Source: an uncultured Bacteroidota bacterium
GTDB lineage: Bacteria > Bacteroidota > Bacteroidia > Bacteroidales > B18-G4
NCBI GenBank assembly: GCA_963793485.1
Contig: CAWCAB010000001.1
Span: 270,534 to 334,533, forward strand
Direction of reading: 5' to 3'
Length of the DNA stretch: 64,000 bases
Shown here: piece after piece, positions 7,394 through 60,916 of the stretch
Position numbering within the stretch: the stretch's first letter is position 1
Layout: each line of letters starts with the position of its first letter
Notes under the pieces: model-generated
The model's database searches: none
What the model saw: the letters and a program-made list of their open reading frames with translations, nothing else
What the model was told of the DNA's origin: nothing
Made by a program: the position numbers and the translations under genes

Positions 7394-7512
7394 ACCCGTC
7401 CGGGTGTCAAAATTTTGAATTTGAAAAATAATTCCCTATCTTTCGGGCGAACAAAGGTTTTACATAGTAAAATATGTGAGATTTTTGTAAGGGATAACCT
7501 AAATCTTGAATT

Positions 7513-10412: not shown

Positions 10413-10489
10413 TAAGAGGAATGAAGACCGAGGAACGAAGACCGAGGAACGAGTAACGAATAACGAATAACGAGTAACGAGTAACGATT
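10413..10489. repeat. heptanucleotide tandem array, 11 units
   Basis: taagagg aatgaag accgagg aacgaag accgagg aacgagt aacgaat aacgaat aacgagt aacgagt aacgatt. Starts 2 nt after the stop at 10409-10411. Confidence 0.95.
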
Positions 10490-10501
10490 GTATCTTGTTA
10501 T

Positions 10502-10891
10502 CTACTGTTTATGCCCTTCGAAATCGCCGCTGGTATTATCCTCCAGTTCTTCCCAGCTTCCGGAAACTTCGTAATGACCGGTGATGAGCCCGGCCAGCAG
10601 TATTTCAGGTCCCGAAAAGGCGAAGATCCCTTGCTCGTTAAGGGTAACAATACGAGAATAGGTTGAGTTGTCAGAATCAGATGTAACAAACATCTCGAAC
10701 TGGAAACTGTTCACGATAGTGAAGGTCCATGTGCCTGTGTCGTCCCCGCTATATGTTCCGGCATATATTCCCTGGTAGGGCAGGAGCCAGGTTGGGGTTA
10801 CATTTGGATCAGGCTCTTCCTCTTTACATGCAATGGTGATCATGGCCAATATCATAAACATTGCCAGCATTCTAGTGATGATCTTTTTCAT
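10502..10891 (-). CDS. hypothetical lipoprotein
   Basis: The likely start is MKKIITRML (ATG at 10889-10891) rather than the ORF-track start at 10918. Lipobox ITIA-C followed by KEEEPD. Confidence 0.55.
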   Translation of the reverse strand: MKKIITRMLAMFMILAMITIACKEEEPDPNVTPTWLLPYQGIYAGTYSGDDTGTWTFTIVNSFQFEMFVTSDSDNSTYSRIVTLNEQGIFAFSGPEILLAGLITGHYEVSGSWEELEDNTSGDFEGHKQ

Positions 10892-13373: not shown

Positions 13374-13444
13374 TCAATTATTTACGACCTTAACTTTAAA
13401 CTAAACAATGTAGGAGGATTTAAGTTCAATTATGGATGATGGGC

Positions 13445-13598
13445 ATTAGGCATTGGGCGTTAGGCGTTAGGCGTTAGGCAGTAGGCAGTAGGCGGTATGC
13501 GGTATGCAGTAAGCAATAAGCAGTAGGCAGTATTAACCATGTAGCCATGTAGCCGCTTTCCCTCGCCCCCCGTCCCTCGTCCCCCGTCCCGCATCCAG
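13445..13598. repeat. heptanucleotide tandem array, 22 in-phase units
   Basis: attaggc attgggc gttaggc x3 agtaggc x2 ggtatgc x2 agtaagc aataagc agtaggc agtatta accatgt agccatg tagccgc tttccct cgccccc cgtccct cgtcccc cgtcccg catccag. Confidence 0.95.
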
Positions 13599-15992: not shown

Positions 15993-16202
15993 AAGGAAAT
16001 GAATTAAGTAAACAATATGCCTGCTTTTTGCCTGAAGATAGGTCAGGCCTTTTAGGTACATGCCGAAAAGATGATTATTCCTGCATGAATTTCATGGACG
16101 AATACAGTCTCTTTTGTTTATAAGATATGGGTAATGATTTACTCAAAGATAACATAAAGTAGAAATGATTGCAAGTATAAAAGGTATATGTCACGACCTG
16201 TA

Positions 16203-16282
16203 CTTGATTATCGCTCTGTGATTTAGTATATTTACAGTACCAACGGTGAACCTTCCTTATGTTTTGCTTAATCAATAGCTGA
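16203..16282 (+). promoter_or_regulatory. conserved promoter/5'-leader cassette, copy C1 (only + strand copy)
   Basis: cttgattatcgctctgtgatttagtatatttacagtaccaacggtgaaccttccttatgttttgcttaatcaatagct. Matches the five minus-strand copies. TTG, about 20 nt, then TATATTTA resembles the Bacteroidetes -33/-7 pattern. Confidence 0.5.
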
Positions 16283-16449
16283 TATGCTATCAGCAGTATC
16301 CGATTAACGAAAAATACTTGTTAAATTGATATATAGATTACCCGAACATGTTTTTGTCTGCCCTATATGGGTGCATAAAGCAACAATAGCTTACTATATT
16401 AACAATTGCCAATGATTAGATTGAAAACGGAAATTAAACAAAAAACAAA

Positions 16450-17817
16450 ATGAAAACAAAATTACTTCTGTTACTTACATTTATGATTTATGTAAACACC
16501 CATGCTCAATTCGGCCCACAACAAATTATAACAACAAATGCAGTTGGGGCAATATCAGTTTACGCCACAGATATCGACGGAGATGGCGATATGGATGTGC
16601 TTTCTGCTTCTCAAAATGATGATAAAATAGCCTGGTATGAAAATACCGATGGCCAAGGAAGTTTTGGCTCGCAACAGATTATAACAATAAACGCAGATAA
16701 AGCAATATCGGTTTACGCCACAGATATCGACGGAGATGGCGATGTGGATGTGCTTTCTGCTTCTCAAAATGATGATAAAATAGCCTGGTATGAAAATATC
16801 GACGGAGAAGGTAATTTTGGTTCACAACAAATCATTACAACAAATGCAGATTATGCAGGATCTGTATACGCCACCGACATAGACGGAGATAAGGATATGG
16901 ATGTTCTTTCTGCTTCTCTTAATGATTCTAAAATAGCCTGGTATGAAAATATCGACGGACAAGGTAATTTTGGTTCACAACAAATTATAACAACAATTGC
17001 AGATGGGGCATTTTCAGTCTACACTGCCCATATAGATGGAGATGGCGATATGGATGTGCTTTCTGCCTCTTTTAATGATGGTAAGATAGCCTGGTACGAA
17101 AATACTGACGGACAAGGTAATTTTGGTTCACAACAAATCATTGCAACAAATGTAGCGGGAGCAAGACCCGTTTACGCTATTGATATAGACGGAGATGGCG
17201 ATATGGATGTGCTTTCTGCTTCTTATTATAATGATGAAATAGCCTGGTATGAAAACATTGACGGACAAGGTAATTTTGATTCGCAACAAATCATTACAAC
17301 AAATACAGATGGGGCCTATTGGGTTCATGCAAGCGATATAGACGGAGATGGCGATATGGATGTGCTTTCTGCTTCTGTTAATGATGATAAAATAGCCTGG
17401 TACGAAAATACCGATGGACAAGGGAGTTTTGGTTCACAACAAATCATTACAACAAATGCAGCTGAGGCAATGTCAGTTTACGCCACTGATATAGACGGAG
17501 ATGTTGATATAGATGTGCTTTCTGCTTCTTTTGATGATGATAAAATAGCCTGGTATGAAAATTTAACAACTTTGGCTATAAATCAAAACACATTAATAAG
17601 TTTTTCAATTTATCCAATACCAACAACAGGTGCTTTAATTGTTAAATCAAAAGCAAGCATTGCTCAAATAGAAATTTATAACAAGTTTGGTCAATTAATG
17701 ATGTCAAAATCAAACGAAAATAAGATTGATATATCTACCTTAAGTCAGGGTTTGTATTTCTGTAAAGTTAAAGATGAAAACGGTGTTTCTGGAATAAAAA
17801 AAATAGTGAGGGAATAG
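16450..17817 (+). CDS. T9SS cargo: seven-blade FG-GAP/VCBS beta-propeller protein
   Basis: 455 aa. Seven 51-aa repeats of the form FGSQQIITTNADxAxSVYATDIDGDGDMDVLSASxNDDKIAWYENTDGQGN. C-terminal T9SS CTD (FSIYPIPTTGALIV...GLYFCKVKDENGVSGIKKIVRE). Confidence 0.85.
   Translation: MKTKLLLLLTFMIYVNTHAQFGPQQIITTNAVGAISVYATDIDGDGDMDVLSASQNDDKIAWYENTDGQGSFGSQQIITINADKAISVYATDIDGDGDVDVLSASQNDDKIAWYENIDGEGNFGSQQIITTNADYAGSVYATDIDGDKDMDVLSASLNDSKIAWYENIDGQGNFGSQQIITTIADGAFSVYTAHIDGDGDMDVLSASFNDGKIAWYENTDGQGNFGSQQIIATNVAGARPVYAIDIDGDGDMDVLSASYYNDEIAWYENIDGQGNFDSQQIITTNTDGAYWVHASDIDGDGDMDVLSASVNDDKIAWYENTDGQGSFGSQQIITTNAAEAMSVYATDIDGDVDIDVLSASFDDDKIAWYENLTTLAINQNTLISFSIYPIPTTGALIVKSKASIAQIEIYNKFGQLMMSKSNENKIDISTLSQGLYFCKVKDENGVSGIKKIVRE
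16510..17575 (+). repeat. seven tandem 153-bp intragenic repeats (propeller blades)
   Basis: Long near-identical DNA stretches recur every 153 bp, e.g. gatatcgacggagatggcgatatggatgtgctttctgcttct...aaaatagcctggtatgaaaat. Confidence 0.9.
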
Positions 17818-18589: not shown

Positions 18590-18658
18590 TGCCCGGAAAC
18601 TGCAAGCTTGCTTGTAAGTTTTTGGGCATGAAAAAAGACCATAAGGAGCGAAGCGAGT

Positions 18659-19172
18659 GGGCTTTTGTTTATTGTACCCCCCCCAAGGGATCAGCGAGCG
18701 AAGCGAAGCTAATCCTACCCGAGAAGTGCCTAAAGTATTGGAGTGCCTAGAGTGCCTAAAATGAAGGAGGGCCTTTTGTTGTTGTACCCCCCCCAAGGGA
18801 TCAGCGAGCGAAGCGAAGCTAATCCTACCGAGAAGTGCCTAAAGTATTGGAGTGCGCTAGAGTGCCTAAAGTTAAGCAGTGGGCTTTTGTTGTTGTACCA
18901 CCCCCCAAGGGATCAGCGAGCGAAGCGAAGCTAATCCTACCCGGGAAGTGCCTAAAGTTTGGAGTGCGCTAGAGTACTTAGAGTTTTGCGGGCTTTTGTT
19001 GTTGTACCACCCCCCAAACGGATCAGCGAGCGAAGCGAAGCTCATCCTACCGAGAAGTGCCTAAAGTACTTGGAGTGCCTAGAGTGCCTAAAATGAAGCG
19101 AGTGGGCTTTTGTTTATTGAGCCACTTCCCAAGGGATCAATTTCACGAAGTGGAGTTAATCCTACTACCCCA
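18659..19172 (+). repeat. tandem array of a ~110-nt unit (four full units of 110/112/109/114 nt plus a divergent partial fifth)
   Basis: Units start at 18659, 18769, 18881, 18990 and 19104. Consensus: gggcttttgttgttgtaccccccccaagggatcagcgagcgaagcgaagctaatcctacccgagaagtgcctaaagtattggagtgcctagagtgcctaaaatgaag. Unit lengths are not multiples of 3. Confidence 0.95.
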
Positions 19173-20602: not shown

Positions 20603-20675
20603 GGAAGCGAATCTAATCCTGGACAGAAGTGCCTAAAGTACTTGGAGTGCCTGGAATGACGCTTTTATTGTTGTT
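20603..20675 (+). repeat. dispersed partial copy of the 110-nt tRNA-Pro-islet unit
   Basis: ggaagcgaatctaatcctggacagaagtgcctaaagtacttggagtgcctggaatgacgcttttattgttgt aligns with the central and 3' part of the tandem unit. Confidence 0.8.
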
Positions 20676-20702: not shown

Positions 20703-21320
20703 TTATTCTACAGAATACAGAACGCGTAAATAATCAATACCTACCTTTTGTTTTCCGTGAATTTTAAAACCAACCATATTACCAAAAAAGCTTTGAAAAG
20801 GATTTACTGCAATAAGAGAACCATTTGAATAAAATTTTAATTCGTCCCCTTCTTTTATTATCATCAGCCTATTTGTACTTCCTACTCCTATATTGATATA
20901 TTCACTTTCTGTCCAGGGTATAATTTCTGTTTCTTTGCCATTTCTTTTTTTAAAAAATTTGAATTCGCCTCTATGGTTTATTATGAAACAATAATAATTT
21001 TTCACATCTGAGAAGCCAAAACAGATTCCGTATCCGTTTGTTTTACTTGTACTTATTTTTGTTATTGATGTTTCTATCTCAAAATTTTTACTTTCATCTA
21101 TTTCCATCTTATACGTTACCTTCACAGCTCCCCTCTTCTTTAGGACTTCAATATAATAATAGCCATCTTCTATGCTGTATGATACTGACTTACCATCCTG
21201 CGAAAAAGGTCTATTGTAATTGAATTCATCGAAATATAGCATTCGACATTTGGACTGAGCCAGTGAAGATGAATTAATTAAAATGCAAAACAGAGTTATA
21301 ATAATTGGAATATTTCTCAT
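20703..21320 (-). CDS. hypothetical secreted protein
   Basis: 205 aa with a signal peptide (MRNIPIIITLFCILINSSSLAQ). Preceded by cassette copy C2. Confidence 0.55.
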   Translation of the reverse strand: MRNIPIIITLFCILINSSSLAQSKCRMLYFDEFNYNRPFSQDGKSVSYSIEDGYYYIEVLKKRGAVKVTYKMEIDESKNFEIETSITKISTSKTNGYGICFGFSDVKNYYCFIINHRGEFKFFKKRNGKETEIIPWTESEYINIGVGSTNRLMIIKEGDELKFYSNGSLIAVNPFQSFFGNMVGFKIHGKQKVGIDYLRVLYSVE

Positions 21321-21421
21321 AGCTCCACTATTTGAGGTTAATAGCCATTGATTAAGCAGAGCATTTGGAGGGTTCTCCTTTGGAGATGTAAATATACTAA
21401 ATCACAGAGGCTTAGTCAAGG
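21321..21421 (-). promoter_or_regulatory. conserved promoter/5'-leader cassette, copy C2
   Basis: Sense strand: ccttgactaagcctctgtgatttagtatatttacatctccaaaggagaaccctccaaatgctctgcttaatcaatggctattaacctcaaatagtggagct-ATG. Confidence 0.5.
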
Positions 21422-21504
21422 TTTTGAGTGTTGGGTGTTGGATGTTGAATTATTTTCGATTTTCGATCCTCGATTTTCGATCCTCCTTGTTCCTCTGTTC
21501 TCTA
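21421..21504. repeat. heptanucleotide tandem array, 12 units
   Basis: gttttga gtgttgg gtgttgg atgttga attattt tcgattt tcgatcc tcgattt tcgatcc tccttgt tcctctg ttctcta. Confidence 0.95.
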
Positions 21505-21585
21505 TTCTACCAGGAGCTTCTGCCTGATCTTCCTGCCCTCAACCGTCACCTCCACGATGTACATAGCGGAAAGTATAACATTAAT
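21502..21585 (-). pseudogene. 27-codon relic of a T9SS C-terminal sorting domain (3' gene fragment only)
   Basis: The reverse strand reads (stop)INVILSAMYIVEVTVEGRKIRQKLLVE*. There are 8 mismatches in 63 nt against the 3' end of the 28307-29857 gene (manual alignment). An in-frame stop lies immediately upstream. Confidence 0.8.
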
Positions 21586-21717
21586 CTAAGCTATATGATA
21601 AATAGTTGTGGGCCCACCAGGAGTTGAGCGATTATCTAATCTCTTGTAACACAATTAACTAAAAATCTACAAATTAAAAATGCGGGTGAAATGTATGACA
21701 CTCAAAATTGGCCAGGT

Positions 21718-22146
21718 CTACTTTCTAACCACCAGCAGATGCGCTTTATGACTTGCCCTTGTTTTTACACAACCTATGATCTGGCCGCTAATGGTTTCCT
21801 CTTCGTTTATTGTAGCAAATACCTTATGTATATTTTCTATTTGCTCTGAATCAGAACCTAAGGTAACATCAACACCATTTGCACGGTATGCTATCCATGA
21901 GCCACACTGCATACAATCATCAACTGTCAGCACTATGGCATACTTATATTTAGCGTCAATAGTCAGTGTGTCAGTGCTAATCTCGGTGAATACGCTGATA
22001 TCGAAGTAACCTTCTTCAACGATCTCCCACATATCATCTATGAGTTCATCTTTTGCAGCATTAACTACTGTTTTCATCTCTTCCGTCTGAGCGAATAATG
22101 TGCTAACACACATTGACATTAAAACAATAATCAATAGTTTTTTCAT
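21718..22146 (-). CDS. hypothetical secreted protein
   Basis: 142 aa with a signal peptide (MKKLLIIVLMSMCVSTLFAQ). Preceded by cassette copy C3. Confidence 0.55.
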   Translation of the reverse strand: MKKLLIIVLMSMCVSTLFAQTEEMKTVVNAAKDELIDDMWEIVEEGYFDISVFTEISTDTLTIDAKYKYAIVLTVDDCMQCGSWIAYRANGVDVTLGSDSEQIENIHKVFATINEEETISGQIIGCVKTRASHKAHLLVVRK

Positions 22147-22247
22147 AGCTCTACTATTTTAGGTTAATAGCTTATGATTAAGCAGAGTATAAGGAAGGTT
22201 CTCCTATGGTCCTGTAAAGATACTAAATCGCAGGGCCAGAATCAAGG
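22147..22247 (-). promoter_or_regulatory. conserved promoter/5'-leader cassette, copy C3
   Basis: Sense strand: ccttgattctggccctgcgatttagtatctttacaggaccataggagaaccttccttatactctgcttaatcataagctattaacctaaaatagtagagct-ATG. Confidence 0.5.
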
Positions 22248-22468
22248 TGTTGGGTGTCTGGTGCTGAGATCCACACCAGCAGATTTAAATCTATAATTAC
22301 ATCCTCTGCTTTCGTCTCTTCTTTACCGGGATAATATTATAGATTCTTATTTGGATGCTTTTTCTTAGGCCGATTAATTTCGAAATCCCAATTCTCCTTG
22401 GTGCCAGAAAATCCCAGATGGATATATTTACTTTTCCCTTGCTCTTTTGATTCAGTGTTTAGAATACA

Positions 22469-24334
22469 TTAATCCTTCACGCAGCGGCACCCGAAATAGG
22501 CGGCATCATTTATAGGACCAAGTATAGCACCTAAAGAGATTCCGTAGGATGAAAACCCAGCTTCTTCGAAGCTATTCAAGCCAAAGGTTAAAATTTGAGC
22601 AGGATCGTTATTAATGAATGACGATGTCCAAAAAGCAGCGCCATTACCTATCCCGCGATAGGTTCCAAGGGCAGTGTTGAAATACCCCTGTGCCAATCCA
22701 TTGAATTCACTGGAGTTGCGCAGCGGATCCGTAAGGCTTTGAGGGTCATCATTCCACGTTAGGGCCGACTTTAACTTAATACCCACTTTTTCTGATATGC
22801 CAAGAACGCCTGACGTATCTGTATTTATCTGACTGCCACCTATTTCGCTTATCATTTTGTTCAACTCCTCCCGGGTAGGAAGGTGCCAGCCTTCCGGGCA
22901 GATACCCTGAACAGCCTGCCCACCGGGAGGAACCGGGTCGTCACCGTTCAACATTTGCAAGGGCTGATACAAGCGTCCATAACTGCTGCAATTTCCCGGA
23001 CTATCATCATAACATTTACTGCCGGGCGCGTTATATCTCAAATTTTCAACCATCCATGTTTTACCGCCAATACACTCATATTTATAGGTCTCTCCATCTC
23101 TTGGATCTGTGAAAGTGCCCGCATCGTCACACCCGCCATAGCACCATGTTGGCGATTTGAAATGTTTGAAATATAATTTTTTTCCTTCTCTTGGTTTATA
23201 TAATCCAAATTCGGAACCATCGGACTGAAGATGTGCGATACCTGTGCTGTCTTTATCATTGATCAGCGAATTGATGAGAGAGTCTTCCATTTGTTTGCTA
23301 AAGAGGTTGTCTACAGTACTGGAGCGCAAATCATTGAAAGCATAAGCATAATAGCTAATTGGATTTTTATTAATAAACGCGATACCCATAACGAGTTTCG
23401 AATACCCTGTTTTTGTAATGCCACTGTAGCACATATTGGCAAAGACCACCGTATTGGGTAAATCAGGTGATGCTTTAATATATTCTGAGGTTATCCAAAG
23501 TTCATATTCCCGGTTTTCTATTGAATGAATTGGTGAATTATACCAGTCAATATTGGAGATAAAAAAGTCACACTTTGCCGTTACACCTAATTTACATTTC
23601 CCGGTCAGTAATTTGTCATAATTGGCACTTCCGATTTTCTGAATGATGTAGGCTTTGAATTGGCTGGAATCTGGCGGCGGTGTGGAAGTAACGGAAAATT
23701 TAGTTCCCGTCAGGAACGAAATACCCGCCCCATGCGTATCCATGATCACAAGGCCATAATCCTTAAATGTTTCGAACACTTCAGGGGTGCATTGTGCATC
23801 TTTCAACAGGGTAACCTCATACTCCTGGTCCGCATTGGCAAAGAGATCCAGTATTCTTTGCATTTCTGCTTGTTTATAAAACTCACTGTATGCGGCTGCA
23901 TAGATCAGGACTTTTTTGTTCTCAATGATGTTGGAGCAACCTTCTGATGACGACTGCAAATTGGTTAATCTGCCTCCGGAAGAACCGCCTCCGCGATAAA
24001 CACTGAATCCATCCTGGTCTATTTCGTTGAAGTGAAACATCGTTTGAAGGCCTGTGGTCATTTGTATATGGATGTAGATGCTATCAACCACTTCCGTGGT
24101 AGCAACCCCGGCTTGTGTTCTTATCCAATCATCGGTAAGCATAATGGCTTCACATGGATTGCCATTTGTGGTGGCTGCAAAATCAAGAAATTGATCGTAA
24201 GTTTTGTTTAAGAGCATATACACCTCAAACATAGCACGGTCCGTTTCTTCACTGTTTGTAATATCATCTTTCTTTTTACAGTTGAATAAGAGGAGGATTG
24301 CAAGTAGAAATGTTAATGATGTTTTCCAGTTCAT
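22469..24334 (-). CDS. large lipoprotein with C-terminal FISUMP domain
   Basis: 621 aa. Lipobox LLLFN-C followed by KKKDD. C-terminal ~200 aa: WMVENLRYNA...CPEGWHLPTREELNKMI...FWTSS...CRCVKD. Confidence 0.75.
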   Translation of the reverse strand: MNWKTSLTFLLAILLLFNCKKKDDITNSEETDRAMFEVYMLLNKTYDQFLDFAATTNGNPCEAIMLTDDWIRTQAGVATTEVVDSIYIHIQMTTGLQTMFHFNEIDQDGFSVYRGGGSSGGRLTNLQSSSEGCSNIIENKKVLIYAAAYSEFYKQAEMQRILDLFANADQEYEVTLLKDAQCTPEVFETFKDYGLVIMDTHGAGISFLTGTKFSVTSTPPPDSSQFKAYIIQKIGSANYDKLLTGKCKLGVTAKCDFFISNIDWYNSPIHSIENREYELWITSEYIKASPDLPNTVVFANMCYSGITKTGYSKLVMGIAFINKNPISYYAYAFNDLRSSTVDNLFSKQMEDSLINSLINDKDSTGIAHLQSDGSEFGLYKPREGKKLYFKHFKSPTWCYGGCDDAGTFTDPRDGETYKYECIGGKTWMVENLRYNAPGSKCYDDSPGNCSSYGRLYQPLQMLNGDDPVPPGGQAVQGICPEGWHLPTREELNKMISEIGGSQINTDTSGVLGISEKVGIKLKSALTWNDDPQSLTDPLRNSSEFNGLAQGYFNTALGTYRGIGNGAAFWTSSFINNDPAQILTFGLNSFEEAGFSSYGISLGAILGPINDAAYFGCRCVKD

Positions 24335-24494: not shown

Positions 24495-25841
24495 TTACTT
24501 CATCAATACCATCTTTCCACCACCAACCTTATCTCCAGCCTGAATCCAGAAGTAATACATTCCAATAGACAGTCCTTCAGCGTTCCATTGTACCTTCTGT
24601 TCGCCCTTAGTCTGTTCCTGAACGATCTTCTCGACGAGCTGACCTTGGGGGTTGAAGATGTTTATTGTAACGGTAGAAGGCTTCGAGAGGGTATAGGAGA
24701 GCGTTGTTGAGGTGGTGAAGGGATTGGGGTATTGATAAATTGTAATACTATTCGTATTTGACAATGACAACTCCTTTAAGCCCACCCCAGAATTGTTCGT
24801 ATGCAATATCGTACCACTATCGGCTGCAATCCATCCTTCTTCCTCATTGATAAAGCATACACTGTTTAACCTTTGTTTTGTTCCTGCATCTTGTTCTATC
24901 CAGCTATCTCCGCCGTCTTGTGTATGAAGTATAAGAGACCATTCATAAGATGTCGACCACATTCCTCCTACTGCCCATCCTGTGTTATTGTTGATAAAAC
25001 AGACACTTGTCAGTGCATAATCCAGGCTATTTGTCGTATTGTAGAATGTTGAATCCCATTGGATGCCTCCATTGTTCGTTCGAAGTATGCTTGGAATTGG
25101 TTCAAAACCCCATATTCGATTAATCCCCACAGCCCATCCATTTTCAGTGTCTGTGAAACATACACTATTTAATGGGGAATAAACACCTACGGAGTTGATT
25201 TGCTCTTCCCAGGTGATACCACCACTTGTCGTTTTAAGGATGGAACAATATGGTTGTCCGCTGCTGCCGGCGACAAAACCACCAACCACCCATCCGGTAT
25301 CAGGATCAGTAAAATGTATGCTTTTTAAAGGCATAAGGTAAAATGGTTCTTGCCTGTACCAGCTTATACCACCATCATCACTGTGAAGGATTGTACCACG
25401 TATCAGCCAACCAACGCTGTATGATCCCACTGCCCATCCATGAAGTGAATCGGTAAAGTAAATGTCAGTTAACCAACACAAAGAATCAACATACACCTCC
25501 TCCCAACTTAACCCTCCATTACAAGTTCGCAAAATAATCCCAAGTTCTGGATGCTTATACATCCCACCAGCAATCCAGCCATTGAGAGAATCTATAAATC
25601 TGACACTCCGTAAATAGTTGTCTGTCCCACTTAATTGTTGAAACCAATTATCTCCACCATCTGATGTATGCAGGATAATGCCCTCAGATCCAACTGCCCA
25701 ACCATTATCATTGTCAACAAAGAATATACTCGTTAAACTATTGTTTGTTCCGCTATTTTGAGGTAGCCATTGAGCAAATGCACCATCTATGGAGAATAGT
25801 GATAAGTGAACTGCAATTACAATTGTTGCAAATATTTTCAT
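24495..25841 (-). CDS. T9SS cargo: BNR/Asp-box beta-propeller protein (Ycf48/sortilin-like)
   Basis: 448 aa. Repeated Asp-boxes SDGGDNW, CNGGLSW, DDGGISW, TSGGITW, NNGGIQW and QDGGDSW. C-terminal CTD (YQYPNPFTTSTTLSY...GMYYFWIQAGDKVGGGKMVLMK). Confidence 0.8.
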   Translation of the reverse strand: MKIFATIVIAVHLSLFSIDGAFAQWLPQNSGTNNSLTSIFFVDNDNGWAVGSEGIILHTSDGGDNWFQQLSGTDNYLRSVRFIDSLNGWIAGGMYKHPELGIILRTCNGGLSWEEVYVDSLCWLTDIYFTDSLHGWAVGSYSVGWLIRGTILHSDDGGISWYRQEPFYLMPLKSIHFTDPDTGWVVGGFVAGSSGQPYCSILKTTSGGITWEEQINSVGVYSPLNSVCFTDTENGWAVGINRIWGFEPIPSILRTNNGGIQWDSTFYNTTNSLDYALTSVCFINNNTGWAVGGMWSTSYEWSLILHTQDGGDSWIEQDAGTKQRLNSVCFINEEEGWIAADSGTILHTNNSGVGLKELSLSNTNSITIYQYPNPFTTSTTLSYTLSKPSTVTINIFNPQGQLVEKIVQEQTKGEQKVQWNAEGLSIGMYYFWIQAGDKVGGGKMVLMK

Positions 25842-25941
25842 AGCTCTACTATTTTAGGTTAATCGCTTTTGATTAAGCAGAGCGTAAGGAGGATTCCCCT
25901 TGGTGGTGTAAATATACTAAATCACAGGGCGATAAGCAAGG
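25842..25941 (-). promoter_or_regulatory. conserved promoter/5'-leader cassette, copy C4
   Basis: Sense strand: ccttgcttatcgccctgtgatttagtatatttacaccaccaaggggaatcctccttacgctctgcttaatcaaaagcgattaacctaaaatagtagagct-ATG. Confidence 0.5.
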
Positions 25942-26071
25942 TGTTAGGTCTTGGGTGCTAGGTGTTAGGTGTTGGATGCTGGATGCTGGATGCTAGATGC
26001 TGGATGCTGGATACTGGATACTTGATATTCGATACTCGTTGCTCGATACTCGATATTCCATGTCCGTTATT
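25939..26071. repeat. heptanucleotide tandem array, 19 in-phase units
   Basis: aggtgtt aggtctt gggtgct aggtgtt aggtgtt ggatgct x3 agatgct ggatgct ggatact x2 tgatatt cgatact cgttgct cgatact cgatatt ccatgtc cgttatt. Confidence 0.95.
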
Positions 26072-26073
26072 TA

Positions 26074-28176
26074 TTATTCAACAATCAGTTTCCGTCTGAG
26101 CCTGGTATTCTCGATACTGACCTCCACGATGTACATGCCTGTTTTTAGGTGTGAAATATCAATGCTGCCATTTACAGGTCCTGCTTGTAATATTTTTTGT
26201 CCCGTAATGCTATAAATTGACACCTCGTTTATTGTGCTTCCTTTAGCTGAAATATTAAGTTCCTGGTGTGCTGGATTGGGATAAATCCTAAGATCATTCA
26301 TGATATTATTGGATGGTACTGAAGATTGCCCGATATATACAGTAAATGAATCCATTCGCTCGGTAAAACCTGCTGAAGCAATAATTTGAATTTTTGATGA
26401 GCCTGTATTGGCCAATGCTTCGAGCGTTAAAATACTTCCATCAAGTGTTGCCTGAACTGTATCGGAACTTCCGTTGTGGTAAATTGAAAACGTTAGCGTG
26501 TCACCGACTATGGCCGGGACAGTATCTCCTTTCATGAAATGATAGTGTTCCCTCAGATCAATATTTGTTGAGTGGCCTGTGCCTTCTAAATCCAGGTTAG
26601 CAATGCGTGGGCTGTACTGAATGTAATTTGTTGCGTTGAAATCGATCACAAGCGCACTATCCTCGATTGCCCTGAAGAACTGGTTCGAGTGTACATCGAT
26701 ATATTCATCGACATGTCCTGATGGCCAGCGGATGAGCAGGGTGTCGATTACATCGGCATCACCAAGGCCAAAATGAACCGGGGTGTAAGCAAAAGCAACG
26801 TTCCCATCAATGAGGGCGATTTCCCGGGTTTGACAAACATATTTACCATCAATCATGGTTTTGGCATAAATACGCGTTCCATAGGGTGTAGCACAATTAA
26901 ACTTATCAACACATGATATTGAAATGGAAGAATTGTCATTACCTTCGTTAATATACAAATGGTTATGACCTAATGCATCGTATGCATTTCCAATGGTTAA
27001 AACATCCAGGTCACCATCATTATCGTGGTCAAATACTTTTGCTGTATGTCCTTCACCAAGGCTTAAAGTATGATTGAGCAAATTTGTAAACTGTCCATTG
27101 CCATCATTCAGGCACAGAATATTATATAGGGTTGGGGAATATAGTCCTTCGTAGGGACCTGAAAAAGGATAAGGCCCATCTTCAAGTGTGATAAACAGGT
27201 CCTGATCGCCATCATTATCCAAATCACACCAATACGATGAGATTGTAAAAGAACCTTTGTATGATTCGTCAAGTAAAATATGTTTTTCAAATTCCAGGTT
27301 GCCCAGGTTTTCGTAAAGTGCCGGCAGCAGGCCATTTATCGTATCCGGATCTTCGTGAATGACGCAAAGATCCATATCCCCATCATTATCATAGTCGACC
27401 CAGTTTACACTGGGAGTCATGGAAGTATCACTTAATGTAATATGATTTTCGTCAACTTGTTCCAGGGAATCCCCCGTGTTTATGAAAAATGCATTTTTTG
27501 CTACCTTTGAAAATCCACAATACACATCCATATCCCCGTCATTATCAGCATCGCCCCAGGCCATTGAATGCAACCAATCACTTGTTGGTCTGTTGATATT
27601 GGTAATGGTCTCTCTGTCAGGAAATTTACCATTTCCATCATTGTAAAAAACTCTTACAGTTAAGGAAAAATATAATAAGTCTAGATGTCCATCCTTATTA
27701 TAGTCCAATAAAACAGGATAAGATGAATTAAAACTGTTCTGGACATTAATACTGGTGTCGGATAAGAAATTACCATAACCGTCATTAACAAAGACACCTA
27801 TTTTGTCAAAATTAGAATTTGCTATGACATCAATATCCCCATCATTGTCAATATCGCCCATTGGGCTGGGATGAAATACCTCAAAGGCATTACTATATTC
27901 TGGTAAGAATATTTTTTGTTGTATATAAATACCTGTTCGTTCATTCTTGTATAGTGTGAGAGGAGATGCAGTAATACCAATAGCATTTTTGTTGGAGATT
28001 ATAGGATCAAGATCTCCATCATTATCAATATCAAAAAGGATTCCAGAGAATCGTGCAAGGGTACCTTGTGACTCGTAAATACTGCCTGTATCAATCCGGG
28101 TAAATTCGGGAAACTGGGCATTTAAAACGAGGAGGAAAGCAAACAGAAATAAATTGGTGATGAATAACTTTTTCAT
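26074..28176 (-). CDS. T9SS cargo: FG-GAP/VCBS repeat protein with ASPIC/UnbV-like region (CRTAC1-like)
   Basis: 700 aa. Repeated DxDxDGDxD calcium-type motifs (DIDNDGDLD, DIDNDGDID, DADNDGDMD, DYDNDGDMD, DLDNDGDQD, DHDNDGDLD). LIRWPSG motif. CTD: IYPNPAHQELNI...GMYIVEVSIENTRLRRKLIVE. Confidence 0.85.
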   Translation of the reverse strand: MKKLFITNLFLFAFLLVLNAQFPEFTRIDTGSIYESQGTLARFSGILFDIDNDGDLDPIISNKNAIGITASPLTLYKNERTGIYIQQKIFLPEYSNAFEVFHPSPMGDIDNDGDIDVIANSNFDKIGVFVNDGYGNFLSDTSINVQNSFNSSYPVLLDYNKDGHLDLLYFSLTVRVFYNDGNGKFPDRETITNINRPTSDWLHSMAWGDADNDGDMDVYCGFSKVAKNAFFINTGDSLEQVDENHITLSDTSMTPSVNWVDYDNDGDMDLCVIHEDPDTINGLLPALYENLGNLEFEKHILLDESYKGSFTISSYWCDLDNDGDQDLFITLEDGPYPFSGPYEGLYSPTLYNILCLNDGNGQFTNLLNHTLSLGEGHTAKVFDHDNDGDLDVLTIGNAYDALGHNHLYINEGNDNSSISISCVDKFNCATPYGTRIYAKTMIDGKYVCQTREIALIDGNVAFAYTPVHFGLGDADVIDTLLIRWPSGHVDEYIDVHSNQFFRAIEDSALVIDFNATNYIQYSPRIANLDLEGTGHSTNIDLREHYHFMKGDTVPAIVGDTLTFSIYHNGSSDTVQATLDGSILTLEALANTGSSKIQIIASAGFTERMDSFTVYIGQSSVPSNNIMNDLRIYPNPAHQELNISAKGSTINEVSIYSITGQKILQAGPVNGSIDISHLKTGMYIVEVSIENTRLRRKLIVE

Positions 28177-28217
28177 AGCGCTACTATTTTAGGTGAGGCT
28201 TTTGATTAAGCAGAGCA
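28177..28217 (-). promoter_or_regulatory. conserved leader cassette, copy C5 (3' part only; promoter part replaced)
   Basis: Sense strand: ...ctgctctgcttaatcaaaagcctcacctaaaatagtagcgct-ATG. The gtgatttagtatatttaca block is absent. Confidence 0.4.
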
Positions 28218-28239
28218 GTGGGTTTCCCGGTCCCCTTCA

Positions 28240-28309
28240 TGATTTTGGAAGATGGATGTTGGATGATAGATTATTTCATCATTCCATGTTCCCTGTTCTT
28301 TATTCGTTA
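28240..28309. repeat. heptanucleotide tandem array, 10 units
   Basis: gattttg ggaagat ggatgtt ggatgat agattat ttcatca ttccatg ttccctg ttcttta ttcgtta. The last unit contains the stop codon at 28307-28309. Confidence 0.9.
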
Positions 28310-29857
28310 TTCAACCAGCAACTTCTGCCTCACCTTCCTTCCCTCAACCATCACCTCCACGATGTACATGCCTGCCTGAAAGTGTGAGATGTCTACAGTA
28401 CCATTCTCAGGAAGGGCTTTCATTACCTGCTGACCAGTGAGGGTGTATATAATTAACTCATCTACCTCTCTGCCTTCGTCAAGTGAAATATTTAGCTCCT
28501 TATAGGCAGGGTTGGGATATAACACTAGATTGTTCTTGAGATGAATACCATCGATTACTCCTGCATGAGCTAAACAAGAATCATACACTTCTTCCTGACT
28601 ACTGCAACCATCTGCGTTACCATGAAGATTAACTTCTCCACCAGCTGCAGCAAGATAATCACAAATACTCTTTACATCACAGGTAGATAAATTTTTGTTT
28701 GCCCAAACAGTTACATCTGTTATTGAAGCTGCAGAAATATTGTCTAATCCTTCTAATGATGCCAATGTATCGTTTAAAATAATGTGAAGACCACCAACCG
28801 AAGTCAGTCCCTCCAGTCCCGTCAGGCTGGTTAATAAAGGATTACATACATATGCCCATTCCCCGATATGAAGGCTCCCACTAATGGAAGTCAGTTCGCT
28901 TAAGCCTATGAGGTTAGTAATATCATTGTCGCCGGAAATGACGATATCACCTCCAATTTCAGTACAACCAGGGTAGTTGGATTGAAAATCATCAATGTCG
29001 CTTTGACTTAAGAAGTAATAATTCCCAAAAGGCAGACAGGGTAAAGAAATGCCACAAGCATTTGCTATTTCTTTAGGACTATTACACCCCAGCGCGTTAC
29101 TATGTATTTCAACCCTGCCTTTGGGATTTTCAAGGTAACTGCATATACTTTGTGATTCGCAATTAGACAAAGAATTATTGTATCTGATAATCATGTTTCC
29201 ATCAATCAACAATCCGCTGTTCAATCCTGTAAAACTTTCTAAGCTAATATTACCTTGAATACTAACCTTCCCCCCAATATAGGTAAGCCCTCCTAAGCCC
29301 GTTAAAGAAGTTAAAGACGAATTCCCAGCTGTTCCAAATACGAAGTCCTTATCAACAGCATAACCAATGTTGAGAGTTTCACCTATTGTAGATAAGTTAT
29401 CAAGGCCAGCTAGACTGGACAGGGAATCATTACAATATATAGATAGACTTCCTCCAATCGAAGTAAGATTGCTTAATGCAGATAAATCACTCAAGTTTGG
29501 ATTGCTTTGGCATTCTACCGGTTGAAATGGCATTGCATTCATACTCCACCCCCCAATATTTAAACTTCCTCCAATATTAGTCAGGCTTTCCAAGCCCCTG
29601 AGATTTGTCAGGGCAGTATAGCCGATGCGCAGGGTTCCTCCGATTGTTCTTAGAACACTTAATCCATTCAGATTGGCTATGTCATAACCCTCTATTTCGA
29701 CACCACCTTCAATCTCCGTACAATTTGGATAGTTGATTTGAAAGCTGTCAATCTGTGCCTGTGTTTCAAATCTGATACCCTCAGGCAAACAGGATTGGGA
29801 CGATACAGTTATCTGAAAGCATACCAGGACAAGGACGATAATAGATAATTTTCTCAT
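28307..29857 (-). CDS. T9SS cargo: leucine-rich-repeat (receptor L-domain-like) protein
   Basis: 516 aa. Two lobes of LxxLxxIGGxLxIxxNxxLxSLxGL repeats separated by Cys-rich modules. CTD: LYPNPAYKELNI...GMYIVEVMVEGRKVRQKLLVE. Confidence 0.8.
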   Translation of the reverse strand: MRKLSIIVLVLVCFQITVSSQSCLPEGIRFETQAQIDSFQINYPNCTEIEGGVEIEGYDIANLNGLSVLRTIGGTLRIGYTALTNLRGLESLTNIGGSLNIGGWSMNAMPFQPVECQSNPNLSDLSALSNLTSIGGSLSIYCNDSLSSLAGLDNLSTIGETLNIGYAVDKDFVFGTAGNSSLTSLTGLGGLTYIGGKVSIQGNISLESFTGLNSGLLIDGNMIIRYNNSLSNCESQSICSYLENPKGRVEIHSNALGCNSPKEIANACGISLPCLPFGNYYFLSQSDIDDFQSNYPGCTEIGGDIVISGDNDITNLIGLSELTSISGSLHIGEWAYVCNPLLTSLTGLEGLTSVGGLHIILNDTLASLEGLDNISAASITDVTVWANKNLSTCDVKSICDYLAAAGGEVNLHGNADGCSSQEEVYDSCLAHAGVIDGIHLKNNLVLYPNPAYKELNISLDEGREVDELIIYTLTGQQVMKALPENGTVDISHFQAGMYIVEVMVEGRKVRQKLLVE

Positions 29858-29947
29858 GGCTCCACTATTAAAAGTTAACAGCTATTGATTAAGCAGAGCA
29901 TAAGGAAGGTCCTGTAAAGATACTAATTTACAAGGCCATAATCAAGT
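29858..29947 (-). promoter_or_regulatory. conserved promoter/5'-leader cassette, copy C6
   Basis: Sense strand: acttgattatggccttgtaaattagtatctttacaggaccttccttatgctctgcttaatcaatagctgttaacttttaatagtggagcc-ATG. Confidence 0.5.
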
Positions 29948-30081
29948 TGGGTTGACAGCACACCATATTCTCCAGCTGGCGCTCGTCCGTGACGAGTGCC
30001 TTATGTGAGATCCTCGCCAGCGGGGCGAAGCGCTAATTACGATAGCGCCAATTACTGATTTACTTCCGAATTCTCCTTCCC

Positions 30082-31617
30082 CTATTCCCTGCCCGCCAGG
30101 CTCATTGCGCATTTAATCCCATCTGCAGCGCTGGAAACAATGCCTCCGGCCAAACCACTTCCTTCACCAATGCAATAAAGATTATCAAAGCCTGTGCATC
30201 TTCCGTTTTTTTCTCTGTCAACTTGCAAAGGAGAAGATGTCTTACTTTCCAGCCCCATCAGGATTCCCTGCTCGAAGCCTCTGAGTTTCCTGCTGAAATC
30301 TTTAAGTCCTTCTGCTATAGCCTGACTCACTATTTCCGGAATCATATCCGAGAGCTTAGCCGGTATCAGGCCACGCGAATAACTGCCTTTCATAGCTGTC
30401 GAAGTTGGTTTTTGTTTCAGATAATCAGAAACGCGTGTGGCAGGAACTGCCAGACTGTCGGAAAAAGCATAAAACTTCTCTTCCAGCGCATCCATCCAAT
30501 CCATGATCTCCAGAGCTGTGCAATTCCCTCCTGTAAGCATGTCAGGATTGACTCCGGCTACAATCCCTGAATTGGCATACGCGCCATCGCGGGCATAGTA
30601 ACTCATTCCATTTACAACACTTTTGCTGTTAAATGCAGCTGAGGGCACAACAAAACCACCCGGGCACATGCAAAAGGAATAAACTCCTGTTCCATTTGCA
30701 GTCTTTGTTGCCAAACGATATTCAGCGGCTTTTACACCTGGCAGTTGTGTCCTGCCCCATTGTGCCAGATTGATCAATTCCTGCTTATGTTCGATACGGT
30801 GCCCAATGGCAAAATTCTTTGTATTGAATTGTACTCCTTTTCCTATAAGCATCCGGTATGTATCGTAGGCCGAGTGACCTGTTGCGATCAATACATGATC
30901 AGCAGGGATCTCACCTGAACTGCAAATGACTGACTCTACCTTCTGTCCTTTAATGACAATATCCTGCAGTAATGTTTCGAAAAGGATTTGTCCTCCAATT
31001 GATGTGAACTTCTTTCGGAGGTTGGCTACAACTATTTTTAGTTTATCAGTCCCAACGTGTGGATGTGCCATATACAATATTTCTTCAGGTGCTCCTGCAT
31101 CAACATACTCAGAAAGGAAAAACTGCCTTTCCGCAGAAATATGCTTGGAACGTGAAGTAAGCTTGCCGTCTGAAAAGGTGCCGGCCCCGCCTTCTCCGAA
31201 AGCATAGTTGTTCGCAGATGAAAATTGTCCTGCTCCTTCGAGCATATCAATAGCCTTGCTGCGCCTGTCAACTTCCGAGCCTCGTTCAATAATTGTTACA
31301 TCAAACCCACTCAGCTGCAAAATATAAGCCGCAAAAAAGCCCGCAGGGCCACTGCCCGCTACCACAACCTTCTCTTTACGCTTCTTGTATGGAATTTCCA
31401 GCTCTTTGCTTCTGGTATGTTCCTCTCCCTTAAATAGGGGGGAGGTGACCACTATATTCAGCAACCAGTGAATATTATCTTTTTTTCGTGCATCCAGGCT
31501 TTTTCTTTCGGTCACAAAGGAAAAATCCTTCACCCCAAGTTTTTTGCGGATCGCACTTTTTATATCCTCCTTAGTATAGTCGCTCGGAAGTTTTAGCTGA
31601 ATGCTTCTGTATCCCAT
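30082..31617 (-). CDS. FAD-dependent oxidoreductase (COG2509-type NAD(FAD)-utilizing dehydrogenase)
   Basis: 511 aa. Dinucleotide-binding VVVAGSGPAGFFAA. Architecture colinear with the uncharacterised FAD-dependent dehydrogenase family. Confidence 0.75.
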   Translation of the reverse strand: MGYRSIQLKLPSDYTKEDIKSAIRKKLGVKDFSFVTERKSLDARKKDNIHWLLNIVVTSPLFKGEEHTRSKELEIPYKKRKEKVVVAGSGPAGFFAAYILQLSGFDVTIIERGSEVDRRSKAIDMLEGAGQFSSANNYAFGEGGAGTFSDGKLTSRSKHISAERQFFLSEYVDAGAPEEILYMAHPHVGTDKLKIVVANLRKKFTSIGGQILFETLLQDIVIKGQKVESVICSSGEIPADHVLIATGHSAYDTYRMLIGKGVQFNTKNFAIGHRIEHKQELINLAQWGRTQLPGVKAAEYRLATKTANGTGVYSFCMCPGGFVVPSAAFNSKSVVNGMSYYARDGAYANSGIVAGVNPDMLTGGNCTALEIMDWMDALEEKFYAFSDSLAVPATRVSDYLKQKPTSTAMKGSYSRGLIPAKLSDMIPEIVSQAIAEGLKDFSRKLRGFEQGILMGLESKTSSPLQVDREKNGRCTGFDNLYCIGEGSGLAGGIVSSAADGIKCAMSLAGRE

Positions 31618-31830: not shown

Positions 31831-32915
31831 ATGTTTCAAAATATATTGATCACAGGAACAGGTAGTTATATACCAACAGAAGTAGTTACCAATAATGATT
31901 TTGCCAAAAATGACTTTTACGATGCAGGCGGGGTGGCTTTCGATATGGACCATGTGGAAATTGCTGAGAAATTCAAAGCAATTACAGGAATTGAGCAACG
32001 AAGATATGTATCCGATGATCTGTTAGCTTCTGATATTGGAGCTATTGTTGCAAAGATGGCTATCGAGGATGCCGGGATTGATAAGGAAGAGATCGATCAG
32101 CTTATTGTGGCACATAACTTCGGTGATATTCCAAAAGGCACCAATCAAACCGACATCGTTCCAAGCCTGGCAGCTAGGATCAAGCATTCGCTTGGGATCG
32201 TCAAGCCCGGATGTGTTGCCTATGATGTAGCCTTCGGTTGTCCCGGATGGATACAGGGAATCATCCAGGCAGAGGCGTTTATTCGTTCCGGGCAGGCAAA
32301 AAAATGCCTTGTCATAGCCACTGAAACCCTTTCGCGGGTGATTGATATTCACGACCGTGATTCCATGATCTATGCAGATGGTGCCGGGGCTGCTGTGATA
32401 GAAAGCAGGGAAGGAGAAAAAAAAGAAGGGATACTTGCATCGAGTATGGAATCGCACACCTTGGATGAAGCCTATTATTTATTCCTTGGGAAAAGCAATC
32501 TCGCCAGGGAATGACGATAAATGTCAGATACATAAAAATGCACGGACGGAAAATATATGAATTTGCACTGACCCATGTTCCACAAGCCATGAAAGCTGCA
32601 CTTGATAAAGCAGGTGAAGATATCCAGGACCTTAAAAAGATCTTTATCCACCAGGCAAATGAGAAAATGGACTTTGAAATAATCAAAAGATTCTATCGAC
32701 TATATAAGATAAGGGAGATTCCTGAGAATATTATGCCCATGAGTATCCATTTACTGGGAAATAGTTCTGTAGCAACCGTCCCCACATTATTTGACAGGAT
32801 CAGGAGAGGAATTTGCGAAGACCATCATGAATTGAATAAAGGAGATCTTATCCTGCTGGCTTCTGTAGGTGCAGGAATGAACATTAATAGTATCGCCTAC
32901 AAATTCAGGTCCTAG
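31831..32915 (+). pseudogene. 3-oxoacyl-ACP synthase III (KAS III/FabH-family) gene split by a frameshift near 32470-32510
   Basis: ORFs 31831-32514 and 32511-32915 lie in different frames but together are colinear with KAS III. Catalytic Cys in AFGCPGWIQG, His in IHQANEKM, Asn in LGNSSVATVP. Confidence 0.7.
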
Positions 32916-32943: not shown

Positions 32944-34273
32944 CTATTTCTTAGAAGGGACTTTTGCCAGACGAAGGATGGTAATTCCAATAAAAGCAGC
33001 GATCAATGAAGCTGCCAGGATACCTACTTTGGCAATCTCCTCATATTCGCGATTTTCAAACCCAAGATCCGCGATGAACATCGACATGGTGAAGCCAATT
33101 CCTGCCAGGAAAGCCATGCCATAGATATGCTGCCAGCCCACACCCTCAGGCAATCGGGCCAGTTTTAATTTAACGAAAATCCTGCTGAACAGACTGATCC
33201 CGATGAATTTGCCAAGTACCAATCCACCCATGATGCCCAATGAGATGGGATGGAAAAGCATATAGAAAAAATTGCCTTCGATATGAACTCCGGCATTGCT
33301 CAGGGCGAAAATAGGAAGTATAAAGTACGATAGATACCGGATGCAGGGAATGCTCAAGCCTTTGTAAAGGAGTATTTGCATCATCAACATGTTGCCCGAT
33401 CTGGCTGATCACCTTCGACTGAGCTTCTGTAAGCAGGGATTTACTGTTAGCAGCAGTTTTTTTGAAGGTGTCAAGGCAGGCATAGAGTCTTTGAATGAAT
33501 GTTTTTTCATCAATTCGTGGCCTGACAGGAATGGTAAATGCAATGAGTACCCCGGCTATTGTAGCATGTACCCCGGAAAAGAGGAATGAAGTCCAGACGC
33601 CCAGCCCCCCAACAATTGCATAAAATATGGCATTACGAACACCCAATCGATTTGCTGCGACTAAAACACCCAGGAAGAAGGCTGCATTAATCAGCTCAAG
33701 GAGATTGATGGATTCTGTATAAAAAATGGCAATAACCATTATGGCGCCTAGATCATCGGCAATGGCAAGTGCGGTGAGGAAGATCTTAAGGCTGACAGGC
33801 ACCCTTTTCCCTAACATGGCCATCAGCCCGAGGGCAAAGGCAATATCCGTTGCCATCGGGATCCCCCAGCCGTTTAGATACTGTGGTGTCTGGAATTCGA
33901 TAAGAACATATATGAGTGCAGGCACCACCATTCCACCAATAGCAGCCACGATTGGTAATCCTGCTTTTTTAAAGGTAGATAACTCGCCTGCAAGTACCTC
34001 TCTTTTGATTTCAAGACCGATGATAAAGAAAAACGTGGCCATCAAGCCATCATTGATCCAGTGATGTAAGGATGTGGTGATGTTGAAGTCGCCGAAGCTG
34101 AAGCCCATTTGCAGCTCATGCCACAGGTAATGATAAGACTCATGCCATCGTGAATTAGCCCAGATAAGGGCAATGACCGTGATCCCGATAAGAATATATC
34201 CCCCGATGCCTTCTTCCTTGATAAAAGAAAAAATGTTAAACCTTGATTCAGTCTTGAGACGCTCCTTTGCCAT
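32944..34273 (-). pseudogene. nhaA: Na+/H+ antiporter NhaA gene interrupted by a 4-bp tandem duplication
   Basis: ORFs 33170-34273 and 32944-33390 overlap in different frames. The NhaA-like sequence switches frame at LEHSLHPVS / YFILPIFALSNAGV. gatagata at 33329-33336 is a GATA duplication (TATC on the sense strand). Confidence 0.75.
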
Positions 34274-60912: not shown

Positions 60913-60916
60913 GTTC

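Follow-up and report, generated by a model that had tools for sequence, protein, structure and literature searches.

Locus and gene content

We analysed a 64,000-nt stretch of contig CAWCAB010000001.1 (assembly GCA_963793485.1, positions 270,534-334,533, forward strand) from an uncultured Bacteroidota bacterium of the Bacteroidales, lineage B18-G4. This whole stretch is called the window, and coordinates without further label are window positions. Seven minus-strand genes fill 20.7-31.6 kb of it (Table 1) and are referred to by their lower coordinate. Our subject is the sequence that joins several of these genes, which combines the 3' end of a C-terminal domain (CTD) of type IX secretion system (T9SS) cargo, an array of heptamers, and a leader comprising the predicted promoter and 5' untranslated region (UTR) of the next gene. 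At 21321-21585 the CTD end is an orphan, here called the relic. A Pfam scan matched PF18962 (Por_Secre_tail) in genes 24495, 26074 and 28307 of the run and in gene 16450, which lies outside it.

The main comparator was the metagenome-assembled genome (MAG) MFD03804.bin.2.200 of an uncultured Bacteroidales, hereafter the MAG, whose orthologous locus is L014. L035 is another contig of the same ENA assembly. The comparators are different species throughout, with a flavin adenine dinucleotide (FAD)-dependent oxidoreductase gene, the FAD gene, that is 73-89% identical at the nucleotide level. Three orthologous genes of the window and the MAG are 72-81% identical in nucleotides, and the FAD protein is 79% identical in amino acids.

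According to the initial annotation of this DNA, successive genes of the run are joined by one and the same three-part junction of CTD tail, heptamers and leader. We found all three parts at 28177-28370, where only the 3' half of the leader is present, at 25842-26140 and at 21321-21585. The remaining genes do not follow this scheme: the leaders at 22147-22266 and 29858-29950 have no CTD tail or array upstream, and no leader stands upstream of gene 22469. The junction is a module in so far as its parts recur together; it is not one entity, since heptamer arrays occur throughout the window and the leader also precedes genes other than those for T9SS cargo. The CTD tail of a junction belongs to the upstream cargo gene, whichever that may be, as its 3' end, and the three parts recur as a junction because such genes for signal-peptide proteins stand head to tail in islands.

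Table 1. Positions of the genes, leaders, CTD tails and heptamer arrays of the cargo run
Feature	Position	Strand	Remarks
205-aa signal-peptide protein	20703-21320	-	No Pfam domain; leader-led homologue in L030
Leader of gene 20703	21321-21440	-	Core at 21361-21349
Period-7 arrays after the relic	21441-21501	-	Post-stop AGAACAG/AGGAACA, then GGATCGAAAATCGA x2; promoter side CCAACAC-type
Orphan tail of type-A T9SS CTD (relic)	21502-21585	-	27 codons and stop; DNA homology to intact tails ~21567-21493
Spacer between gene 21718 and the relic	21586-21717	-	132 nt
142-aa signal-peptide ORFan gene	21718-22146	-	
Leader of gene 21718	22147-22266	-	MAG copy of the gene lacks it
621-aa protein with Fib_succ_major	22469-24334	-	Probable lipoprotein, judged from the N-terminus
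BNR/YCF48 protein with CTD	24495-25841	-	
Leader of gene 24495	25842-25961	-	L035 orthologue has another leader family
Long drifting period-7 array	25962-26073	-	TATCGAG to TATCCAG to CATCCAG to CACCTAA
FG-GAP/ASPIC protein with type-A CTD	26074-28176	-	
CTD tail of gene 26074	26074-26139	-	Tail and array kept as orphan in L013
Partial leader of gene 26074	28174-28228	-	3' half only, no promoter part
Recep_L/LRR protein with type-A CTD	28307-29857	-	
CTD tail of gene 28307	28307-28372	-	Closest relative of the relic's tail
Leader of gene 28307	29858-29950	-	
FAD-dependent oxidoreductase, cytoplasmic	30082-31617	-	
Truncated leader, inverted relative to the run	16199-16283	+	~165 nt upstream of FG-GAP/CTD gene 16450-17817

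CTD tails and the orphan relic

Codons 21585-21505 of the relic read INVILSAMYIVEVTVEGRKIRQKLLVE and are followed by the stop codon at 21504-21502. Upstream lie an in-frame TAG (21588-21586) and unrelated sequence, so that reading through 21588-21502 returned the 27 CTD codons behind a stop that had been reported before. Equally reproducible were the 8 mismatches in 63 nt, counted from ATG to stop, that separate the relic from the 3' end of gene 28307; 54 of 63 nt match when the compared interval is shifted by 3 nt. Over the 72 nt at 21493-21564 the relic is 85% identical to 28298-28369 and 65% identical to 26065-26136. Comparison with 15 other CTD tails gave 41-54 matching positions of 63. 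A degenerate pattern for DNA coding for GMYIVEV hit four sites in the window, where 0.42 are expected by chance, and three of these are the CTD tails (0-1 mismatch).

The homology between CTD tails runs past the stop codon (AGAACAGRGGAAC), indicating common descent of the DNA and not protein-level constraint alone. In the relic only the final 21 homologous residues are present of a domain that has ~70-80 residues when complete, and there is no signal peptide. Judged by its sequence, the relic is a fragment and not a functional CTD.

A relic with an identical 5' boundary is found in the MAG (L014 ~10600-10690). Looking for further relics, as the initial annotation had proposed, gave two more orphan CTD tails, one behind the MAG orthologue of gene 16450 and one in the relative L013. 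An apparent orphan tail at L004 ~4700 was rejected, being the end of a multiply frameshifted leucine-rich repeat (LRR) gene.

Mosaic identity at the relic

Identity between the window and the MAG is 98.4% in the coding sequence of gene 21718, 94.7% in the spacer that follows and 84% in the 5' part of the relic. Onward from there it is 69% in the relic tail, 38% in the heptamers, where the MAG has an unrelated array at the orthologous position, and 78% in the leader. Upstream of the ATG of gene 21718 the two sequences are unrelated. A maximum chi-square analysis placed the breakpoint at 21548, inside the relic and directly after ...ATGTACATCGTGGAGG, with 579 of 598 positions matching on one side versus 140 of 210 on the other; none of 1000 permutations reached this value.

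The relic tails of the two genomes match each other at 46 of 63 positions. The window relic matches the tail of gene 28307 at 54 of 63, and the MAG relic matches other MAG tails equally well (54 of 63). Another contig of the MAG holds a junction that is almost the same as what follows the MAG relic, through post-stop sequence, heptamers and promoter up to the UTR, where the two diverge.

Only the window genome and one MAG are known to encode the 142-aa protein, an ORFan, and a metagenome scan with it gave no relative. Exact look-ups of this protein and of the FAD protein matched no indexed contig. The gene and its 3' spacer (21718-22146 and 21586-21717; L014 10040-10600; L015 8562-8668) are 95-98% identical between genomes that are otherwise 72-84% identical. 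It looks as if a fragment of ~600 nt had recently been exchanged laterally.

Gene content in other relatives

Comparing gene order in relatives had been proposed as a check on turnover, and the outcome agrees with it. None of the five relatives examined (L011, L012, L013, L015 and L035) retains the cargo run that follows the FAD gene, which is either absent or replaced, and some of the breakpoints lie outside the modules. In L013, where the FAD gene is 89% identical in nucleotides, a PemK/RHH toxin-antitoxin pair stands in place of window 30094-26161. Homology returns where gene 26074 has its CTD tail, followed by the post-stop sequence and array (~91% to window 26160-26033). The relic left there is itself a mosaic, with a 5' half that has a stop and stems from another paralogue. 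In L015 the 8.1-kb cargo run is missing, and the last 107 nt of the 142-aa gene are kept at 96% identity. Further junction copies were found as well. In L009 (MAG) a CTD-to-leader module of ~480 nt is duplicated next to different genes, with copies that are 98-100% identical, and the junction copy on another contig of the MAG was mentioned above. L035 has an orthologue of BNR gene 24495 with 90% identity that begins 22 nt ahead of the ATG; a different repeated leader family precedes it.

Gene 16450 and its MAG orthologue (16450-17817 versus L014 10849-12354) are 84% identical in nucleotides and have different CTD types, that of the MAG being type-B-like. The MAG copy stands directly after the relic junction and is itself directly followed by an orphan type-A tail of ~50 codons (L014 12383-12499). 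At 16199-16449 of the window the leader copy breaks off behind GCTTAATCAATAGCTGA and gives way to ~60 nt of unrelated sequence. Relative to the MAG, gene 16450 gained its own ATG via a 24-nt insertion. In the MAG orthologue an in-frame fusion places the leader ATG ~33 codons ahead of the signal peptide.

The 110-nt spacer after the FAD gene (29972-30081) is 100% identical to L015 8453-8562, while the adjacent gene is 84% identical. This spacer holds GC-rich hairpins (GGCACTCGTC-ACG-GACGAGCGCC). The hairpin at 29972-30024 was considered as a repeat resembling repetitive extragenic palindromes and rejected, being single-copy in all sequence examined. L017, with an LRR gene and one for transketolase, showed synteny too weak to be used.

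The leader family

The leader core CTCTGCTTAATCA occurs exactly five times in the window, always on the minus strand and just upstream of a gene (gene starts 21320, 22146, 25841, 28176 and 29857). By chance, 2.5 copies would be expected even with two mismatches allowed. The truncated plus-strand copy, which is the sixth, was found with nhmmer. In brief, the leader has a TTG, 20 nt, then TATATTTA or TATCTTTA (TAnnTTTA), and a UTR of ~65-75 nt whose 3' 45 nt are nearly invariant. In the leader of gene 20703, TTG lies at 21419-21417 and, after a 20-nt spacer, TATATTTA at 21396-21389; the UTR of ~65-70 nt ends ...AATAGTGGAGCT directly before the ATG at 21320. The housekeeping promoters of Bacteroidetes have the consensus -33 TTTG / -7 TAnnTTTG. 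We take the TTG-N20-TATATTTA/TATCTTTA of the leader to fit this consensus and to be a predicted promoter. Four of the five leader-led genes of the run have their own TTG-N20-TAnnTTTA promoter-like site.

Exact-pattern scans of relatives gave at least 11 leader copies in the MAG, and further copies in two other Bacteroidales MAGs and 18 metagenome contigs; profile searches brought ~50 distinct copies from this same set. Every open reading frame (ORF) downstream of a leader begins with a signal peptide. Among the 42 leader-led ORFs of at least 100 aa, Por_Secre_tail was found in 20, Recep_L in 20, Fib_succ_major in 8 and FG-GAP in 4. Since only about half of the leader-led ORFs have Por_Secre_tail, the leader marks secreted or surface proteins generally and not T9SS cargo alone.

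Searching Rfam with the leader gave nothing at the gathering threshold and, at E <=10, only chance snoRNA/CRISPR noise. An 8-bp helix (GCUCUGCU with AGURGAGC) ends 3 nt before the AUG and is 96.7% paired across 49 distinct copies. There are no double changes in these copies, and the covariation score is no better than that of column shuffles. Single-sequence folding gave modest z-scores of -0.9 to -3.0. A structural role of the helix is possible but unproven, as covariation does not exceed what conservation gives and the z-scores are modest. The junctions have no intrinsic terminators.

By the published definition of putative mobile promoters, the upstream regions of non-paralogous genes share 80% identity or more across 50 nt or more between -150 and -50 (PMC3575422). 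Genes 21718 and 24495 reach 80.6% over 67 nt. Two other pairs of upstream regions are 77% identical over 70 nt, the remaining matches are shorter, and the gene bodies differ in Pfam fold. Over -150 to -1, the three best leader pairs are 79-84% identical across ~120 nt. The leader looks like a previously uncatalogued, lineage-specific, multi-copy promoter/5'UTR family, with predicted promoter activity and a putative regulatory role.

A second, unrelated family of repeated promoter/leader sequences is present in L035 (~4870-5063 and ~6560-6760), with heptamer arrays before it. It precedes the BNR orthologue and the next gene, and what it has in common with the leader of the window is only the final ~22 nt ahead of the ATG.

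Heptamer arrays

The period-7 signal is window-wide: 716 nt lie in repeats at lag 7, of which 633 nt are intergenic, and none at lags 5, 6 and 8-11, in agreement with the Tandem Repeats Finder rows. In the relic junction, CCAACAC-type units run on into the leader to ~21420. Period-7 arrays were also seen at 4918-5028, 7346-7399, 10433-10492, 13439-13532, 25952-26038, 38263-38342, 39375-39422, 45167-45274 and 60836-60913. The array types tend to follow position, with GAACAGR, GAACGAG or GATCGAA after stop codons and CCAACAC or CCATAAT before promoters. The unit drifts gradually along each array.

Search for a dedicated recombination system

Pfam domains of recombinases or transposases were absent from the 49 window ORFs scanned, in line with the initial annotation, and neither an intI beside the array nor an Rci-like gene was found among these ORFs. 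A Y1_Tnp gene elsewhere in the MAG was the only transposase seen. In integrons, each cassette boundary has an attC, which is an imperfect palindrome 57-141 nt long, and the cassettes are promoterless and read from a common promoter, Pc. The four junctions of the present locus show only short, weak inverted repeats and no attC-like imperfect palindromes, and they contain no conserved short crossover core or fixed crossover site. The genes have promoter-like sites of their own, as predicted from their leaders. Inverted leader copies exist (16199-16283 on the plus strand versus 21321-21440 on the minus strand), and no alternative orientation of the shufflon kind was observed.

Interpretation and alternative explanations

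What we observed of anatomy, copy numbers, mosaic identity and varying gene content fits a cargo island that turns over quickly, in which leader and CTD-tail sequences repeatedly coincide with homology breakpoints, within-genome homogenisation and lateral import. We suggest that this secreted-protein island probably turns over by homology-driven modular recombination at shared stretches, and not by an integron-like machine. As dispersed repeats of 60-480 nt, the junction parts, up to 98-100% identical in a relative, would act as homology arms. General homologous recombination and gene conversion between these arms, with occasional illegitimate joins, would replace, delete or laterally import gene bodies and leave mosaic junctions behind. 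The pathway would presumably be of the RecA type, perhaps following DNA uptake. The relic is probably left over from a CTD cargo gene, the body of which gave way to the 142-aa ORFan gene in an illegitimate join. The unit of this gene and the relic would later have been exchanged between lineages, with one crossover in the GMYIVEV-coding stretch and the other homology boundary at the start codon. The proposal of the initial annotation, that conserved 5' and 3' boundaries serve as recombination substrates while the cargo turns over, gains support from the breakpoint inside the relic, the likeness of each relic tail to tails of its own genome, and the module copies.

Several observations weigh against this interpretation, and part of them would be expected from ordinary paralogy and selection, with a regulatory leader, a CTD kept as secretion signal, a relic that is a one-off scar, and modules that play no special part. 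The left end of the replacement in L013 is the stop codon of the FAD gene, outside the module. The deletion in L015 likewise lies outside any module, at a GG microhomology that connects the interior of the 142-aa gene with the spacer following the FAD gene. As the relic boundary is common to both genomes, the relic would have been created in a single event, an illegitimate join 21 codons from the stop. The relatives are all different species and synteny is generally poor at these distances, so that general loss of synteny contributes to the differing gene content. Pseudogene calls need care and some may be assembly errors, because these MAGs contain frameshifted genes. A putative inversion between the leaders at 16.2 kb (+) and 21.4 kb (-) fits only the topology and could not be confirmed, because the MAG lacks the segment in between, with tRNA and transketolase, and the leader at 16.2 kb is truncated. 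Functional constraint moreover acts on CTD tails and on leader cores, the core being nearly invariant in 49 copies. Paralogy and selection as the whole explanation nevertheless seem unlikely to us. They do not account for non-coding post-stop, heptamer and promoter sequence that is nearly identical between loci while the orthologous array of the window is unrelated. Nor do they account for the sharp step from 97% to 67% identity inside the relic, the own-genome likeness of relic tails, or leader families swapped between orthologues that are 90% identical.

The leader, with or without array and CTD fragment, could instead be a small mobile element, a mobile promoter or a unit resembling miniature inverted-repeat transposable elements (MITEs), that inserts upstream of genes. 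The same unit of ~120 nt does stand before unrelated genes, one pair of which falls under the published definition of putative mobile promoters (PMC3575422), and L035 has a second repeated leader family. The point of joining also varies, lying mostly at the ATG and ~165 nt upstream in the case of gene 16450, where it differs between window and MAG. An element with no terminal inverted repeats, target-site duplications or fixed ends is nonetheless a very unlikely source of this pattern. Its 5' edge fades into variable heptamers, the 5' boundaries of relics range from 21 to ~50 codons ahead of the stop, and the one Y1_Tnp gene was seen elsewhere in the MAG, with no transposase domain among the 49 window ORFs scanned. 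A dedicated site-specific cassette system with its recombinase encoded elsewhere in the genome would explain an array of genes with conserved boundaries, and also that the inverted leaders at 16.2 kb (+) and 21.4 kb (-) flank a segment oriented differently from the arrangement in the MAG. The data are unlike such a system because recombinase domains are lacking from the 49 ORFs scanned and attC structures and a fixed core from the junctions, each gene has its own predicted promoter, and the breakpoints are spread over CTD tail, UTR and ATG. We regard it as highly improbable, and with it the integron- or shufflon-like turnover that the initial annotation had also envisaged. Chimeric contigs, assembled or binned across repeats, could in principle produce mosaics and relics, and the split genes in both MAGs are typical of error-prone long-read assemblies, L035 coming from the same ENA assembly as the MAG. 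A relic with an identical boundary in two independent megabase contigs, and the end of the 142-aa gene in a third assembly, from JGI, make an artefact extremely improbable; the mosaic blocks are presumably also far shorter than the long reads implied by megabase contigs.

A bolder version of modular recombination is that CTD tail and leader form a recombinase-free slot for gene capture and that the leader is a new cis-regulatory RNA co-regulating the accessory secretome. We consider this version quite unlikely. A fragment bounded by a leader/signal-peptide start and a type-A CTD tail would be inserted by homologous recombination, and the slot would supply promoter, 5'UTR, export signal and T9SS sorting signal. 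If this were true, the slot would be a functional analogue of the integron for the secretome, exchanged among co-occurring Bacteroidales.

Relation to known systems

Integron arrays resemble the present locus in having unrelated genes in a row with a recurring junction sequence between them. The window differs in having no intI among the 49 ORFs scanned, no attC structure and no common Pc, and in breakpoints that are not site-specific. The orphan modules of polymorphic toxin loci (Rhs, CdiA) and silent pilS cassettes are fragments that recombine with expressed genes via a short conserved segment. The relic is similar in that a gene fragment keeps a short conserved segment. Those orphans carry both the conserved arm and a variable payload, and as the relic has only the conserved arm, it would be no stored allele but a scar or an anchor.

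The closest described case is that of the T9SS surface proteins of Porphyromonas gingivalis, which diversify by domain rearrangement and allelic exchange (Dashper et al. 2017, PMC5266723). One cargo gene described in the same work occurs at low frequency and, at a syntenic site, has 99.5% identity between species (PMC5266723). Common to both cases are a conserved CTD, variable bodies, and diversification by homologous recombination or gene conversion together with lateral exchange, which we propose for the present locus (PMC5266723). In P. gingivalis, alleles and adhesin domains are shuffled within a cultured, naturally competent species (PMC5266723), whereas here, as known from sequence alone, whole unrelated bodies differ, the leader would be a second homology arm, and there are orphan CTD tails.

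Putative mobile promoters (Nijveen, Matus-Garcia and van Passel 2012, PMC3575422) share with the leader the similar upstream regions of non-paralogous genes, sometimes across taxa, and the lack of an Rfam match. In contrast to these, the leader family has dozens of copies, reaches the ATG and the signal-peptide codons, is tied to secreted proteins, and is coupled to CTD tails and heptamer arrays. Long simple repeats of heptanucleotides are known from bacterial intergenic regions, and TAACTGA occurs in Beggiatoaceae, Cyanobacteria and some Bacteroidetes (Mrazek et al. 2007, as far as summarised in PMC4679880). As in that summary, the window arrays are tandem with period 7, almost exclusively intergenic, and located by gene starts and stops (PMC4679880). 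Compared with the repeats as summarised there, the window unit is not fixed: it drifts within each array, and arrays after stops (GAACAGR, GATCGAA) differ from those near promoters (CCAACAC, CCATAAT).

What appears new here is the combination of a large secretome-specific leader family, its physical coupling to CTD tails, recurrent orphan tails, and a short cassette that is 95-98% identical between genomes otherwise 72-81% identical. T9SS cargo repertoires vary greatly among Bacteroidota, and their diversification outside P. gingivalis is little documented. The locus offers a concrete, testable picture in which the shared ends of cargo genes would double as arms for body swapping and lateral import. 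The leader family can also serve as a search handle in metagenomes for secreted-protein genes of this uncultured Bacteroidales lineage and for their regulator. If exchange is only occasional, the locus would be a variable surface-protein island of local interest.

Other features of the window

FabH and the NhaA antiporter (31831-32915 and 32944-34273) are each encoded by two overlapping, frameshifted ORFs, and these may be long-read assembly errors or pseudogenes. Similarly split genes are found in the MAG (L014 15338-16361 and 16616-17581). A 726-aa protein encoded at 36085-38265 has many ankyrin repeats and a metallo-beta-lactamase-fold domain (Lactamase_B_3). A 110-bp tandem repeat of 4.4 copies (18650-19139) adjoins two tRNA genes, and as a partial copy follows the transketolase-N gene at 20604-20658, the repeats bracket that gene. 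The 110-bp repeat is also present in the relative L015 (14243-14976).

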